This document shows, piece by piece, positions 13,222 through 40,809 of a stretch of 41,223 bases of DNA. Position numbers and translations under genes: made by a program. Under the pieces are notes generated by a model. That model did not search any database and was not told the DNA's origin. It worked only from the letters and a program-made list of their open reading frames with translations. The stretch comes from an uncultured Candidatus Saccharibacteria bacterium (lineage in GTDB: Bacteria; Patescibacteriota; Minisyncoccia; Phycocordibacterales; UBA9973), in contig CAYHIX010000001.1 in assembly GCA_964356875.1 (NCBI GenBank), positions 1-41,223 of the forward strand, in the 5' to 3' direction. How positions within the stretch are numbered: the first letter of the stretch is position 1; each line of letters opens with the position of its first letter.

Positions 13222-13270
13222 ATTGCAAAACAAAAAACACCATATATTCTGGTGTTTTTTGTTTTGCAAT
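13222..13270. terminator. Long perfect hairpin (21-bp stem), bidirectional terminator-like
   Basis: ATTGCAAAACAAAAAACACCA-TATATTC-TGGTGTTTTTTGTTTTGCAAT. Confidence 0.6.
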
Positions 13271-13306: not shown

Positions 13307-13381
13307 GCCGTTGTAGCTTAGTGGTAAAGCACCATATTGGTAATATGGAGAGCGTGAGTTCAATCCTCACCAACGGCTCCA
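13307..13381 (+). tRNA. tRNA-Thr, anticodon GGU (CCA encoded)
   Basis: Acceptor GCCGTTG/CAACGGC, anticodon arm CCATA-TTGGTAA-TATGG, T arm GTGAG-TTCAATC-CTCAC, then T-CCA. Confidence 0.9.
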
Positions 13382-37766: not shown

Positions 37767-39563
37767 TTAAAAAAGAAAACCTAAAATTTTTGAAAACCAA
37801 CTTTTCTCCACGGGCTTTTCTTCCGTTATGCTTACAGGTTCTACTAGGGGAAGAGCGGGTTTATCATCAATAGCTTTTATAGGAGTCGCAGTTAATATCT
37901 TATTAACTGCGATTTTCTTTTTGGGAATTTCTTTAACAACTTTATTTACCACAGGTGTTGTTGGCTTTTCAAATTTCTGTAAAGTTTCGCCCCATGTTTT
38001 TCCTGAATATGACTTGATAGTATATGTGGTTTGCCAGATCTTATTTTTAAGGTTTTCTTCTTTTATACCTCCATCTGTATCTTGCTTAGATGCTAAGTAA
38101 TCAAGTGGAGTAAGTTCTCCTTTCTTCCAATCTTCAGGCTTTTCATTTAGTCCTATAATACCTTCAATAGCCCATGCAGTAGATGAAACATTACCGAAAC
38201 CACCGTCTTCTTTTTGGCTCTTTTTCAAGAATTCTTTTCCTTTTTCTATAGCTTTCTTAGTATTTTCTCCACTATCTAAAGTCGATAAGATTTGGATAGT
38301 GGCCCCAGTCATATCAATACTCTCATCCCAAGACCCGTTTTCTTTTTGTCTACTTAACACAAAGTTCATACTTTCTTTTACCATGTTATCTTCTAGACTA
38401 AATCCGGCATTTTTTAATACCAAGAGCGCAAAGATGTCATCATTATCTTCTTTTATATCTCCAAACTGTTTACCGTCAAAAGCAGAAGTTATCTTCTCTA
38501 TATAGTTTAGTCCATTTGTATTGTATGGATTAAGCCCAACTGCCATGAGAGCCATAGCATGCCTTTCATAGTCTGTCAGTAGATCACCTGCTGGCTTGTG
38601 TTCATTTAAATATTTTATTAATTTTATTGTTGCTTGGGTATGATTACCAGAAGCTAGAGTGATGGCTGCCCAGTCTGTGTACATGTCTTCACCAAATGAC
38701 CCATCATCTTTTTGTTGTGAGATTAGAAATTCAAATGCTTTTGCAACATCAAACTTTAATTTTGTTGTAGCGCCCAAAACCTCTCCAGCCTTATTTGCAC
38801 TAGAGTTGCTGCTGCTACTTCCACCACCGCTAGATACAGGCGCAGGAGTAGTTATTGTTAAAGGTTCAGTAGGGAAATAATAATCTTCCTTTACTCCTAC
38901 ATTATAAGAACCAGCTGTAATAGAGGGGAACATCGCTTGTCCATTTGCATCCACTGCGCTTGTGGTTACTTCAGTTGGGCTAAATGGATCACTTGGGTTA
39001 GGCTGAGTCAGCCCCACAGTAACGCCTGTCCTAGTGGTCCAGGAATTGTTCTCGTAGTCGTAGTTTTGAGTAGTGACAGTCAGGGTGTCATTTGTGCTGA
39101 TGTCTGAAGAACTTAGGAGTATCTTGGTCTGTGATCCGAAGTATATATATACATTTTCTCCACCACTTAAAATACTCTGATCAATACTAGAGAAAGGATA
39201 TGATCCGTTTACTACATACTGCCAGTTGTCGCAATCTTCACCAAAAGTGCTTTCTAAACATTTTAAATAAAAAGCCCCAAAAGAATCATAATATTGGAGA
39301 GATGAAATACTCCAAGTATCATCGAGAGAGTCTGCCTGGGTTAGAAGTGACAGCACGCTTTGATTATTTACTGAATGCGGGGTACCAGTATTGTCTTCTA
39401 TGTCTACAGCGCCCGAGGCTCCAAGCGGGACTTCTCCTGAAAAGATAATATTTGAACCACTTCTGACAGTGAGTGCTACTGTAGGATCTTCGGCATAAGA
39501 AACTTTAGTAAATCCAGTTAGTAATATTGCGAGCACTACTAAAACTTTTATTGTATTTTTCAT
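37767..39563 (-). CDS. Secreted multidomain protein: DUF4430-like beta domain, Ig-like domain, Ser/Gly linker and a prenyltransferase/terpene-cyclase-like alpha/alpha toroid (transcobalamin-like parts list)
   Basis: 598 aa with signal peptide MKNTIKVLVVLAILLTGFTKVSYA. NWQYVVNGSYPFSSIDQSILSGGENVYIYFG is DUF4430-like. Four Q-x-x-DG-[SG]-[FW]-type repeats are present (SQQKDDGSFG, SRQKENGSWD, KSQKEDGGFG, SKQDTDGGI). Second gene of the riboswitch-led operon. Confidence 0.85.
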   Translation of the reverse strand: MKNTIKVLVVLAILLTGFTKVSYAEDPTVALTVRSGSNIIFSGEVPLGASGAVDIEDNTGTPHSVNNQSVLSLLTQADSLDDTWSISSLQYYDSFGAFYLKCLESTFGEDCDNWQYVVNGSYPFSSIDQSILSGGENVYIYFGSQTKILLSSSDISTNDTLTVTTQNYDYENNSWTTRTGVTVGLTQPNPSDPFSPTEVTTSAVDANGQAMFPSITAGSYNVGVKEDYYFPTEPLTITTPAPVSSGGGSSSSNSSANKAGEVLGATTKLKFDVAKAFEFLISQQKDDGSFGEDMYTDWAAITLASGNHTQATIKLIKYLNEHKPAGDLLTDYERHAMALMAVGLNPYNTNGLNYIEKITSAFDGKQFGDIKEDNDDIFALLVLKNAGFSLEDNMVKESMNFVLSRQKENGSWDESIDMTGATIQILSTLDSGENTKKAIEKGKEFLKKSQKEDGGFGNVSSTAWAIEGIIGLNEKPEDWKKGELTPLDYLASKQDTDGGIKEENLKNKIWQTTYTIKSYSGKTWGETLQKFEKPTTPVVNKVVKEIPKKKIAVNKILTATPIKAIDDKPALPLVEPVSITEEKPVEKSWFSKILGFLF

Positions 39564-39570
39564 AATATTT

Positions 39571-40047
39571 TTAATTTATTTCGTCTTCGTATTTCCAAGA
39601 GACGACATCACCTTCTTTTATTTTATAATTTGAAACCCCGATCTCTGCTTTTTTACCGTTTACATAATAAATCCAATACTTATTACCATCACTCCTCACT
39701 CCATTTATTTCCTCTATGAACTGACCTATGCCTATAAAATTCTTTTCTTTGAACTTAATTTGTCCTCGCTTTCGAAGAGTACTCATAAAATTGTAAACAT
39801 TTTCACCTTCCTTAATTTCTCCTTTTAGTGTTACTCCATTTATCTCTAGTCTTGCCTCATTTGCTTCGTCTGTATAAATTTTCTTTACTACTTCTGTTTC
39901 TGTGTTTATCTCGTTTACTTCTGTTGGGGGAGAAATACTATAGCCTTTCCCTGCATTATCCTTTTTAGTAAAAAACAAACCACTAAATACTAATAATATA
40001 ATTAAGGCAGAAGCTAGGATTATGGTGTTTTTATCTTTTTTTAACAT
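39571..40047 (-). CDS. Membrane-anchored DUF4430-like (transcobalamin beta-domain-like) protein
   Basis: 158 aa with an N-terminal TM. C-terminal KYWIYYVNGKKAEIGVSNYKIKEGDVVSWKY matches the DUF4430 pattern W-x-Y-x-VNG...G...Y...GD.I.W.Y. First gene after the riboswitch. Confidence 0.8.
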   Translation of the reverse strand: MLKKDKNTIILASALIILLVFSGLFFTKKDNAGKGYSISPPTEVNEINTETEVVKKIYTDEANEARLEINGVTLKGEIKEGENVYNFMSTLRKRGQIKFKEKNFIGIGQFIEEINGVRSDGNKYWIYYVNGKKAEIGVSNYKIKEGDVVSWKYEDEIN

Positions 40048-40058
40048 TTTTAATAATC

Positions 40059-40155
40059 CCTGCCTTTTGAATTCATGAATTCAAAAGGCAGGATACAGAA
40101 AATTATAATCACTACGTTCATTAATTTCAATAAAAAATTCTGCCTTTTAGCAGAA
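40059..40155 (-). promoter_or_regulatory. Riboswitch expression platform: perfect 34-nt palindromic hairpin next to the start codon plus an upstream competing hairpin and U-run
   Basis: 40059..40092 is CCTGCCTTTTGAATTC-AT-GAATTCAAAAGGCAGG, and its 3' arm (minus-strand sense) ends 11 nt before AUG 40047. A second AAAAGGCAG copy lies at 40141..40149 inside UUCUGC-UAAAAG-GCAGAA followed by U6. Confidence 0.6.
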
Positions 40156-40210
40156 TGAGTAGACCTTGGAATGGATTTCGAAGGGCTTATCCTGCTCGGG
40201 ACTAATAAAA

Positions 40211-40305
40211 TAATTGGTAGTCGGACTTGTCTCTCGTCTTATAAAATATAGACCAGAGCTTACCGTAGCGGCACTGTACTGGAATCAAACCAGTTTCCCC
40301 AATTA
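40211..40305 (-). ncRNA. Cobalamin riboswitch aptamer (short, class-II / AdoCbl-variant-like architecture)
   Basis: Minus-strand RNA: P1 UAAUUGG...CCAAUUA, then GGGGAAAC, hairpin CUGG-UUUGAUU-CCAG, GUGCCGCUACGGUAAGC, a short hairpin, and a B12-box-like AAGUCCGACUACC. The order and sequence match the conserved cobalamin riboswitch core. No long P6 extension or GCCACUG element. Confidence 0.8.
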
Positions 40306-40356
40306 CTTCTTTGAATTTTCTAATGAACTCCGTATAGTATATACTTACTATAATCT

Positions 40357-40809
40357 ATGTCAAAAAACGCTGTGGAAAAGAAAATAAAACCAGTAAAGAT
40401 CATGATTTTTGGGACTTTTGATGGTATACACAAAGGTCATATGAATTTCTTTAAGCAAGCGCGAGATCTCTCCAAAACCCCATATCTGATAGTCTCAATC
40501 GCGAGAGATAAGAACGTTAAAAAAATAAAAGGTAAATCCCCAATAAAAAATGAGAAAGAAAGGGAAGAGCTAGTAAGAAAAATCAAAATAGTAGATAAAG
40601 TTATTTTATCTGGTCTTACAAATCACATTCCACACATAGTAAAAGAAACTCCAGACATCATCGCTCTTGGTTACGACCAAGTAGAATACATAAAAAATCT
40701 TAAAAAAGATCTGAAAGAGAAAAAGCTTAGCCCAAAAATAATACGACTAAAGCCTTATAAAGAACATATATATAAAAATACTTTATTAAAAAAACTAGCC
40801 ACAAAATAG
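40357..40809 (+). CDS. HxGH-type nucleotidyltransferase (cytidylyltransferase-like; possibly an FMN adenylyltransferase-type enzyme)
   Basis: 150 aa. IMIFGTFDGIHKGHMNFF is the (H/T)xGH motif of the nucleotidyltransferase alpha/beta phosphodiesterase superfamily. Substrate not assignable. Confidence 0.72.
   Translation: MSKNAVEKKIKPVKIMIFGTFDGIHKGHMNFFKQARDLSKTPYLIVSIARDKNVKKIKGKSPIKNEKEREELVRKIKIVDKVILSGLTNHIPHIVKETPDIIALGYDQVEYIKNLKKDLKEKKLSPKIIRLKPYKEHIYKNTLLKKLATK

Follow-up and report, generated by a model that had tools for sequence, protein, structure and literature searches.

A class-II-type cobalamin riboswitch with predicted terminator control, and a separate palindromic insertion, upstream of a DUF4430 operon in Patescibacteria

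The locus

The sequence analyzed here, referred to as the window, is a 41,223-nt stretch, positions 1 to 41,223 of contig CAYHIX010000001.1 (assembly GCA_964356875.1), of an uncultured Candidatus Saccharibacteria bacterium in the Patescibacteriota. On its minus strand, a cobalamin riboswitch and a short insertion containing a perfect palindrome precede two genes, the first of which encodes a DUF4430 protein. An earlier note, made from the letters of this DNA alone, had proposed the riboswitch and had treated the palindrome as its expression platform. We compared the leader with related loci, which are cited by handles such as L083 where they must be told apart. The main features of the locus, in the direction of transcription, are as follows.

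40336..40363, minus strand: promoter P1, TTGACA (40363..40358), 16 nt, TATACT (40341..40336); 11 of 12 consensus positions
40207..40308, minus strand: cobalamin aptamer with a class-II layout, recognized by RF00174, by RF01689 in the same register, by the family model R1 and by covariation
40131..40156, minus strand: predicted intrinsic terminator, AUUCUGCU-AAAA-GGCAGAAU followed by U6 (hairpin 40156..40137, 8 bp; U6 40136..40131), from a terminator scan
roughly 40122..40048, minus strand: lineage-restricted insertion of about 75 nt, from alignment to L083 and L084, the leaders of 43 loci, and L133-L135
39571..40047, minus strand: gene 1, membrane-anchored DUF4430 protein (Pfam PF14478, E = 1.4e-15) with an N-terminal membrane helix
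37767..39563, minus strand: gene 2, 598-aa alpha/alpha-toroid protein (Pfam SQHop_cyclase_C and Prenyltrans)

Identity and register of the aptamer

The aptamer at 40308..40207 is a true class-II-type cobalamin riboswitch. The Rfam model RF00174 matches 40349..40206 with 32.8 bits, marginally over its gathering threshold of 31.5 (E = 9e-05 for the whole window), and a match to the cobalamin clan (CL00101) above gathering lies directly upstream in 28 of 40 homologous loci in an Rfam scan, with close relatives scoring up to 43.7 bits. A family model built from a 43-sequence alignment, R1, finds the RNA upstream of DUF4430 genes in 81 of the 83 Patescibacteria sources; the window, which is among the training sequences of R1, scores 95.8 bits at 40308..40207. 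The fold of the full leader has a z-score of -4.8. The elements of the aptamer, all on the minus strand, are listed below together with the core motifs that the earlier note had quoted in canonical order, each of which was found where that note had placed it.

40308..40299 with 40217..40208: outer helix, continuous over 10 bp
40294..40278: P4
40275..40267: P5/L5, with L5 UGCCG at 40273..40269
40265..40263 with 40224..40222: P6, CGG with CCG
40258..40231: P6 hairpin
40228..40216: B12-box-like AAGUCCGACUACC
40305..40299: motif UAAUUGG
40217..40211: motif CCAAUUA
40300..40293: motif GGGGAAAC
40293..40279: motif CUGG-UUUGAUU-CCAG
40272..40260: motif GCCGCUACGGUAA

The element GCCACUG is absent from the minus-strand aptamer region. 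Because comparative data are available across the homologous loci, the register of the helices can be regarded as settled, and it is that of the earlier note. In the 28 loci with clan matches the covariance model places AAGUCCGAnUACC on the B12 box, which is the same register. When this structure was imposed on the 43-sequence alignment, 94.3% of the cells were paired and 14 of 25 pairs had changes on both sides; none of 500 shuffles reached these values, and controls in which the register was slid collapsed to 19-48%. The four-way junction P3-P6 and the conserved core (GGGAA, a T-loop-like L4 and the B12 box) are supported by covariation, and P5 shows a swap from A-U to U-A in eight divergent relatives. 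We rejected the alignment that Rfam itself gives for the window, since its outer stem starts inside the -10 box of P1, and the homologues and the covariation favor the register adopted here.

The peripheral elements of the aptamer are variable, as some members carry an extra GC-rich hairpin within L4, for example GACCUGCCCGAAAUG...CAGGCGGGG (L003:2691-2830, L022:2728-2860, L064:2664-2792, L073, L074 and L079), and in L049 about 110 nt are inserted into the P6 hairpin. Between the inferred start of P1 transcription and the aptamer, a stretch of some 20 nt (40309-40329) is conserved and GAGUUCAUUUGAAAA-like, also in L013, L018, L083 and L084; RF00174 aligns it as a weak hairpin resembling the P2 arm.

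Promoter P1 would start transcription near 40329. Only three sites in the 41-kb window match the promoter consensus at the 11/12 level on either strand, and two of them, P1 and a second site described below, lie in this leader. P1 is invariant in the syntenic relatives L083 and L084 and is present in L133 and L134. The conserved AGTATATACT within 40336-40363 is a 10-nt palindrome, which gives a TATACT -10 box on both strands, and P1 and the promoter of the divergent gene may stand back to back.

Aptamer class and ligand

The aptamer spans 102 nt, has neither a P2 arm nor the P7-P11 extension, and carries on P6 only a single 28-nt hairpin, which bears out the class-II layout that had been proposed for it. 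The more specific suggestion, a preference for small upper ligands, fared less well. The adenosylcobalamin (AdoCbl)-variant model RF01689, which describes the class-II cobalamin (Cbl) riboswitches of type Cbl-IIa, gave 27.0 bits on the core alone, below its gathering threshold of 36.5; its alignment deletes seven J1/3 positions and sets 35 nt against the 4-nt L6 of the model. No J1/3 internal loop, the second T-loop, was found between P1 and P3 of the window aptamer. A paired segment replaces it and a short hairpin sits on P6, as in the layout of Cbl-IIb. The Rfam scan did not report RF01482 (gathering 50 bits) at gathering for the window; L032 is the only relative that passes this threshold (51.7 bits), and RF01689 is the best-scoring model for four relatives.

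Judged by its unbroken outer helix, its lack of J1/3 and its short P6 hairpin, the predicted architecture is Cbl-IIb-like. Published Cbl-IIb aptamers have a paired outer helix and a short P6 hairpin and are associated with adenosylcobalamin (PMC7367189). Class-II members cover the whole range of selectivity between AdoCbl and methylcobalamin (MeCbl), with J1/3 as a key determinant (PMC6158498), and selectivity within the class varies widely, layout being no predictor of it (PMC7367189, PMC6158498). The proposed preference for small upper ligands thus lacks support, because the layout is Cbl-IIb-like and selectivity cannot be read from layout.

The conserved expression platform

Downstream of the aptamer, the leaders share a single order of elements, seen in 43 loci and later in 80 of 81: the aptamer, a CCCGAGCAGGA hairpin, a variable hairpin, the sequence AUUCUGC...GCAGAAU followed by U5-8, and a start codon within 0-25 nt. 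The terminator of the window thus has its equivalent in 80 of 81 loci. Two further elements of this platform were located in the window.

40190..40201, minus strand: P13/L13 hairpin UCC-CGAGCA-GGA, in which CCCGAGCAGGA lies a few nt after the aptamer; candidate kissing partner of L5
40189..40196, minus strand: antiterminator 5' strand AGCAGGAU, which can pair with AUUCUGCU at 40156..40149 and overlaps the 3' side of P13

The earlier note had overlooked both the conserved P13/L13 hairpin and the antiterminator. P13 is a 3-bp stem with a 6-nt loop; CCCGAGCAGGA is invariant in 78 of 80 loci and the stem covaries in L076. L5 (UGCCG) and L13 (CG(A)GCA) can pair over 5 bp with one bulged A, at -5.2 kcal/mol for the computed duplex. 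Cobalamin kissing loops always hold an unpaired nucleotide, and L13 needs to be presented in a stem-loop (PMC5028336). We regard the L5-L13 pairing as a candidate kissing loop.

As expected of an antiterminator platform, P13 has on its 3' side a sequence complementary to the 5' arm of the terminator. In the window the AGCAGGAU/AUUCUGCU duplex has a computed energy of -10.4 kcal/mol (p = 0.005 against shuffles), and over 80 loci the equivalent duplex averages -9.7 kcal/mol, compared with -4.1 kcal/mol for shuffled sequences, with p<=0.05 in 82% of the loci. The antiterminator fold is the minimum free energy (MFE) structure of the nascent transcript up to the U-tract (-51.3 kcal/mol), and the competing terminator hairpin has an energy of -9.1 kcal/mol. 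The same logic of P13, antiterminator and terminator has been shown by mutagenesis for the metE riboswitch of P. megaterium (PMC10327014). A platform that sequesters the ribosome-binding site (RBS), of the env8/btuB type, does not fit the window, where L13 is about 150 nt from the AUG, Shine-Dalgarno (SD) sequences are not in use and the palindrome has no link to the aptamer. Taken together, the conserved elements and the folding predict control by transcription termination upstream of the operon, which is itself predicted to capture B12.

The local hairpin followed by U6 that the earlier note had described is the hairpin recovered by the terminator scan at 40156..40137. The second copy of AAAAGGCAG that it had placed at 40141..40149 is present, one base away at 40148..40140, and forms the loop and 3' arm of the family terminator. 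Of the combined translational and terminator control that had been inferred, the terminator part is upheld by the scan and by the 80 of 81 loci, and the part based on SD sequestration is not, SD-like motifs being at background frequency. In several relatives, among them L134 (1180-1203) and L135 (180-202), the ATG directly abuts the U-tract of the terminator. Because of this arrangement, it is possible that the terminator hairpin in full-length transcripts also hinders initiation, giving dual control across the family.

The palindrome lies in a lineage-restricted insertion

The ATG of the window is separated from the terminator by the palindrome and other elements, listed here.

40059..40092, minus strand: perfect 34-nt palindrome, CCTGCCTTTTGAATTCA followed by TGAATTCAAAAGGCAGG (17+17), ending 11 nt before the AUG at 40047
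40102..40130, minus strand: internal promoter-like P2, TTGAAA (40130..40125), 17 nt, TATAAT (40107..40102); 11 of 12 consensus positions
40101..40091, minus strand: conserved TTTCTGTATCC after P2
40050..40130, minus strand: small open reading frame (ORF) starting at UUG 40130 (26 codons) or AUG 40121 (23 codons), running through the palindrome to a UAA 2 nt before the main AUG

The coordinates, perfect symmetry and distance to the AUG agree with the earlier description of the palindrome, which had counted it as 16+2+16, here 17+17. As RNA it would form 15 bp with a 4-nt loop (-22.5 kcal/mol). The window contains no second copy of it.

Comparison with syntenic relatives indicates that the palindrome lies outside the riboswitch switch, in a separate insertion. 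The relatives L083, L084 and L133-L135 share with the window the promoter, aptamer, P13 and terminator, as well as the neighboring genes (RNase J, MFS, the divergent cytidylyltransferase, DUF4430, the toroid protein and DoxX), and the L083 protein begins MLKK..., as does the main ORF of the window. Since these relatives pass from terminator to start codon in 0-19 nt, the window carries an insertion of about 75 nt. The insertion is absent from 84 of 86 related loci. The only other carrier, L003, is syntenic as well, and its protein shares 43% identity with that of the window.

Between the two carriers, ATTGAAA and TATAATTTTCTGTATCC (17/17 nt) are identical, and the spacer between them is about 65% identical and 1 nt longer in L003. 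A promoter scan recognized TTGAAA-17/18-TATAAT at 11 of 12 positions in both, and P2 is the second of the leader's 11/12-level sites noted above. Hexamers at a spacing of 16-18 nt that are conserved while the spacer drifts are what is expected of a sigma-70-type promoter. At the position of the palindrome L003 has a different perfect palindrome of 36 nt, CCCGAATTTTTGTATTCT followed by AGAATACAAAAATTCGGG, with a hairpin energy of -21.9 kcal/mol. The arms of the two palindromes differ by five substitutions and one indel, each mirrored in the opposite arm. The palindrome would lie 1-4 nt from the 5' end of the predicted P2 transcript. These observations suggest that the insertion is a putative internal promoter followed by a 5' stem-loop.

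Further copies of this cassette beyond L003 were found neither in the window nor in the 86 loci. A metagenome scan with TTGAAAN{16,19}TATAATTTTCTGTAT returned 29 unrelated matches, none of them with an aptamer or a palindrome, and a scan of viral contigs returned 19 chance matches. The contigs of the closest proteins (P0002, P0004, P0005, P0008 and P0012) all lack the cassette. A local tandem duplication was considered as the origin of the insertion and rejected, the local alignment score being 25 as compared with 20.5 +/- 3.6 for shuffles (p = 0.13).

A conserved leader peptide was likewise rejected. The open frame in L003 also crosses its palindrome and ends across the main AUG, but the frame differs and the peptide is unrelated, and the small ORF is probably not a conserved coding feature.

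Other elements occur at the same site in a few relatives. L029 (after position 94), L031 (2927-3000) and L059 (2840-2920) have a different element of about 80 nt between terminator and ATG; a long-range stem, CCCGU.../...GGG, reaches right up to the AUG, with covariation between L029 and L031. L054 has another insert between terminator and ATG, with an 8+2+8 palindrome.

Alternative explanations for the palindrome

The earlier note had assigned the palindrome to the riboswitch as a translational sequestor, with copy 1 of AAAAGGCAG, the CUGCCUUUU arm and copy 2 of AAAAGGCAG forming three mutually exclusive helices. The 9-mer is indeed repeated, a duplex of 10 bp is possible between copy 1 and the 5' arm of the palindrome (-14.6 kcal/mol), the hairpin ends 11 nt before the AUG, and the AUG abuts the terminator in some relatives, so that hairpins near the start codon are normal in this family. 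Nevertheless, the palindrome is missing at 84 of the 86 loci that have the same riboswitch, and the terminator and palindrome of L003 share no such repeat. Constrained folding of the leader gave -65.3 kcal/mol for the forced helix and -82.2 kcal/mol for the MFE, a cost of about 17 kcal/mol. No link between the palindrome and the ligand is visible, the conserved switch being that of P13, antiterminator and terminator. SD-like motifs occur upstream of 7 of the 47 genes in the window, as compared with a background of 12%, and the SD-like GAGG of L003 lies outside its hairpin. We consider this model very unlikely, and with it we set aside the palindrome as expression platform, the competition of duplicated arms and the sequestration of an SD sequence in the palindrome stem. 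Translational coupling deserves about as little credence. Here the hairpin in read-through transcripts would keep ribosomes from initiating at the main AUG directly, and ribosomes translating the upstream ORF (40130/40121..40050) would open it and reinitiate at the AUG, 2 nt past the UAA. Both carriers do have an open frame through the palindrome that stops at or next to the main AUG, the AUG of the upstream ORF is as far from the U-tract as the start codons of relatives are, and interplay between upstream ORFs and B12 riboswitches is known in M. tuberculosis (PMC11260477). The frames, however, differ relative to the conserved block, the peptides are unrelated and the only start in L003 is UUG; we estimate the chance of such a stop-free run at about 0.1-0.15 per frame in AT-rich DNA, and nucleotide conservation peaks in the promoter-like hexamers rather than in coding features.

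A DNA operator for a dimeric repressor of P2, located at about +3 to +36 of the P2 start, would provide a second, B12-independent input. It would account for the perfect symmetry without G-U pairs in both carriers, for changes that are mirrored in both half-sites, for the core TTTT(T)G-ATTC that the arms share, and for a location just downstream of a near-consensus promoter, which is typical for operators. Yet all 17-18 positions per arm take part in the symmetry, the center and the outer ends among them, which is beyond the constraint that a protein usually imposes. No regulator gene sets the two carriers apart, their neighborhoods match those of insertion-free relatives, and the near-equal stabilities of the two hairpins suggest selection on the hairpin itself. 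An operator is therefore unlikely in our view. Still less probable is a neutral insertion, left behind by a small palindromic or mobile element or by recombination, with hexamers that arose by accident in AT-rich sequence. Its patchy distribution (2 of 86 loci) would be as expected, and the other elements at the same site in L029, L031, L059 and L054 indicate that this spot tolerates or attracts insertions. A neutral origin is difficult to reconcile with carriers whose proteins are only 43% identical but which have kept all 17 nt of TATAATTTTCTGTATCC, ATTGAAA and, through mirrored changes, a perfect hairpin. Moreover, the searches of the window, the 86 loci, the metagenome and the viral contigs produced no further copy, and an origin by local duplication was not supported (p = 0.13).

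Regulated operon and genome context

The AlphaFold model of the DUF4430 protein has a pLDDT of 81. In Foldseek searches the best-known folds matched by its DUF4430 domain are the cobalamin-binding beta domain of transcobalamin (5no0/5np4), on which it superposes with TM 0.81 and rmsd 1.5 A, and those of intrinsic factor and haptocorrin. A PDB sequence search with both operon proteins returned nothing meaningful. The orthologues of gene 2 in L083 and L084 also have a DUF4430 match, and the operon resembles a split or rearranged transcobalamin, with an anchored beta-domain and toroid proteins (window 37767-40047, minus strand; L083:3001-5217; L084:3001-5096). DUF4430 homologues are widespread in Patescibacteria. 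With a transcobalamin-beta fold and the aptamer upstream in 81 of 83 sources, the target gene appears to be related to B12. The operon is predicted from the structural models to encode a transcobalamin-like B12 binder, and repression of a B12-capture operon by B12 would be the expected logic.

Some gene calls in the databases are affected by the leader. For the DUF4430 homologues P0023, P0050, P0035 and P0060 they run upstream through the riboswitch, as in 'IPVQCRYGK', which is the translated P4-L5 core, and the N-termini of these four proteins are therefore artefacts. A TATAAT-like box stands 6-12 nt ahead of the ATG in many genes of the window, for example those starting at 2758, 9847, 20014, 28602 and 36691. 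Together with the background frequency of SD-like motifs, this suggests an organism whose mRNAs are for the most part leaderless or nearly so and lack SD sequences. Elsewhere in the window, a perfect 21-nt inverted repeat, ATTGCAAAACAAAAAACACCA / TGGTGTTTTTTGTTTTGCAAT, with a 7-nt gap lies at 13222-13270, just upstream of a tRNA at 13307.

Discussion

The reading that we favor, with a probability of about 0.72, is a class-II riboswitch with terminator control, accompanied by a separate insertion of P2 and a stem-loop. The riboswitch transcript would begin at P1, at about 40329. With a corrinoid bound, the L5-L13 kissing loop would keep the weak 3-bp P13 closed, the terminator would form and transcription would stop before the operon. 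Folding and the comparison of 80 loci suggest that, with no ligand, AGCAGGAU would instead pair with the 5' arm of the terminator, so that the antiterminator forms and transcription reads through. P2 would most likely allow the operon to be transcribed independently of the riboswitch, and the 5' hairpin of the P2 mRNA would stabilize the transcript and/or damp translation.

Several observations weigh against parts of this reading. The RF00174 score is barely above the gathering threshold, and the covariance model's own alignment of the window has the wrong outer register, with many non-standard pairs in the outer stem. The kissing loop shows no covariation: L5 and L13 are invariant, and the sole L5 variant, in L029, is uncompensated. 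The -35 box of P1 overlaps the ATG (40357) of the divergent cytidylyltransferase-like gene, and the conservation of P1 may for that reason be partly coding. Neither palindrome has a G-U pair, an absence that a constraint on the DNA explains no less well than one on RNA, and the reading of P2 with a 5' hairpin comes from two carriers.

A bolder interpretation of the insertion is that P2, TTTCTGTATCC and a hairpin that has changed without losing its perfect symmetry make up a riboswitch-bypass module, which would give a B12-scavenging operon of some Patescibacteria a second, ligand-independent mode of expression. We offer it tentatively and think it more doubtful than not. Under the same reservation, its symmetry could be kept by a constraint on the DNA, or because a 5' hairpin shields the mRNA from RNase J in an organism whose other mRNAs are largely leaderless and free of SD sequences.

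The riboswitch is ordinary in that both the aptamer class and the logic of P13, antiterminator and terminator have already been described. Its distribution is of wider interest. Nearly every DUF4430 (transcobalamin-like) operon found in Patescibacteria lies behind the same highly conserved class-II cobalamin riboswitch, which is direct genomic evidence that these reduced and probably auxotrophic bacteria sense and scavenge corrinoids. A literature search found no paper that combines 'Patescibacteria' and 'cobalamin riboswitch'. A compact natural class-II aptamer without J1/3 and with a terminator could also aid studies of ligand selectivity and riboswitch engineering. The insertion of promoter and palindrome is a minor curiosity. 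If P2 is active, it would illustrate how a promoter inserted after the terminator of a riboswitch can escape control by it, a small point with two carriers.

Comparison with known systems

The corrinoid riboswitch of Priestia megaterium metE (PMC10327014) offers a close parallel to the platform, in that an L5-L13 kissing loop, a candidate in the window, stabilizes P13, a structured region separates P13 from the terminator, and the terminator is intrinsic. The window differs in having a P13 of only 3 bp with a 6-nt loop, and its aptamer is of class II whereas that of metE is of class I. The metE mechanism was shown by experiment, and the platform in the window is a prediction from sequence and folding.

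Stem-loops at the 5' terminus stabilize bacterial mRNAs, as in the leaders of E. coli ompA and B. subtilis aprE. The insertion resembles these in placing a very stable hairpin within a few nt of the inferred P2 start. Its perfect symmetry over 17-18 bp without a G-U pair is unusual by comparison, and the P2 start of the window is a predicted one.

Among cobalamin aptamers, Cbl-IIb (e.g. the eut AdoCbl riboswitch of Enterococcus faecalis, RF01482) shares with the window the four-way junction P3-P6 and the conserved core, together with a paired outer helix without J1/3, a short P6 hairpin and the absence of a P2 arm and of P7-P11 (PMC7367189, PMC6158498). The window nonetheless reaches gathering only for the general RF00174 model, and in contrast to E. 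faecalis eut its predicted platform is a cis-acting terminator switch upstream of the operon for a B12 binder. The Cbl-IIa aptamer env8HyCbl (RF01689) is similarly short, with an identical order of core elements, an L5 that is free for a kissing loop and the same register; the window lacks its 7-nt J1/3 loop, scores below gathering and has a larger L6. Env8 has its RBS in L13 and regulates translation (PMC5028336), whereas in the window L13 lies some 150 nt from the AUG and the predicted control is by the terminator.

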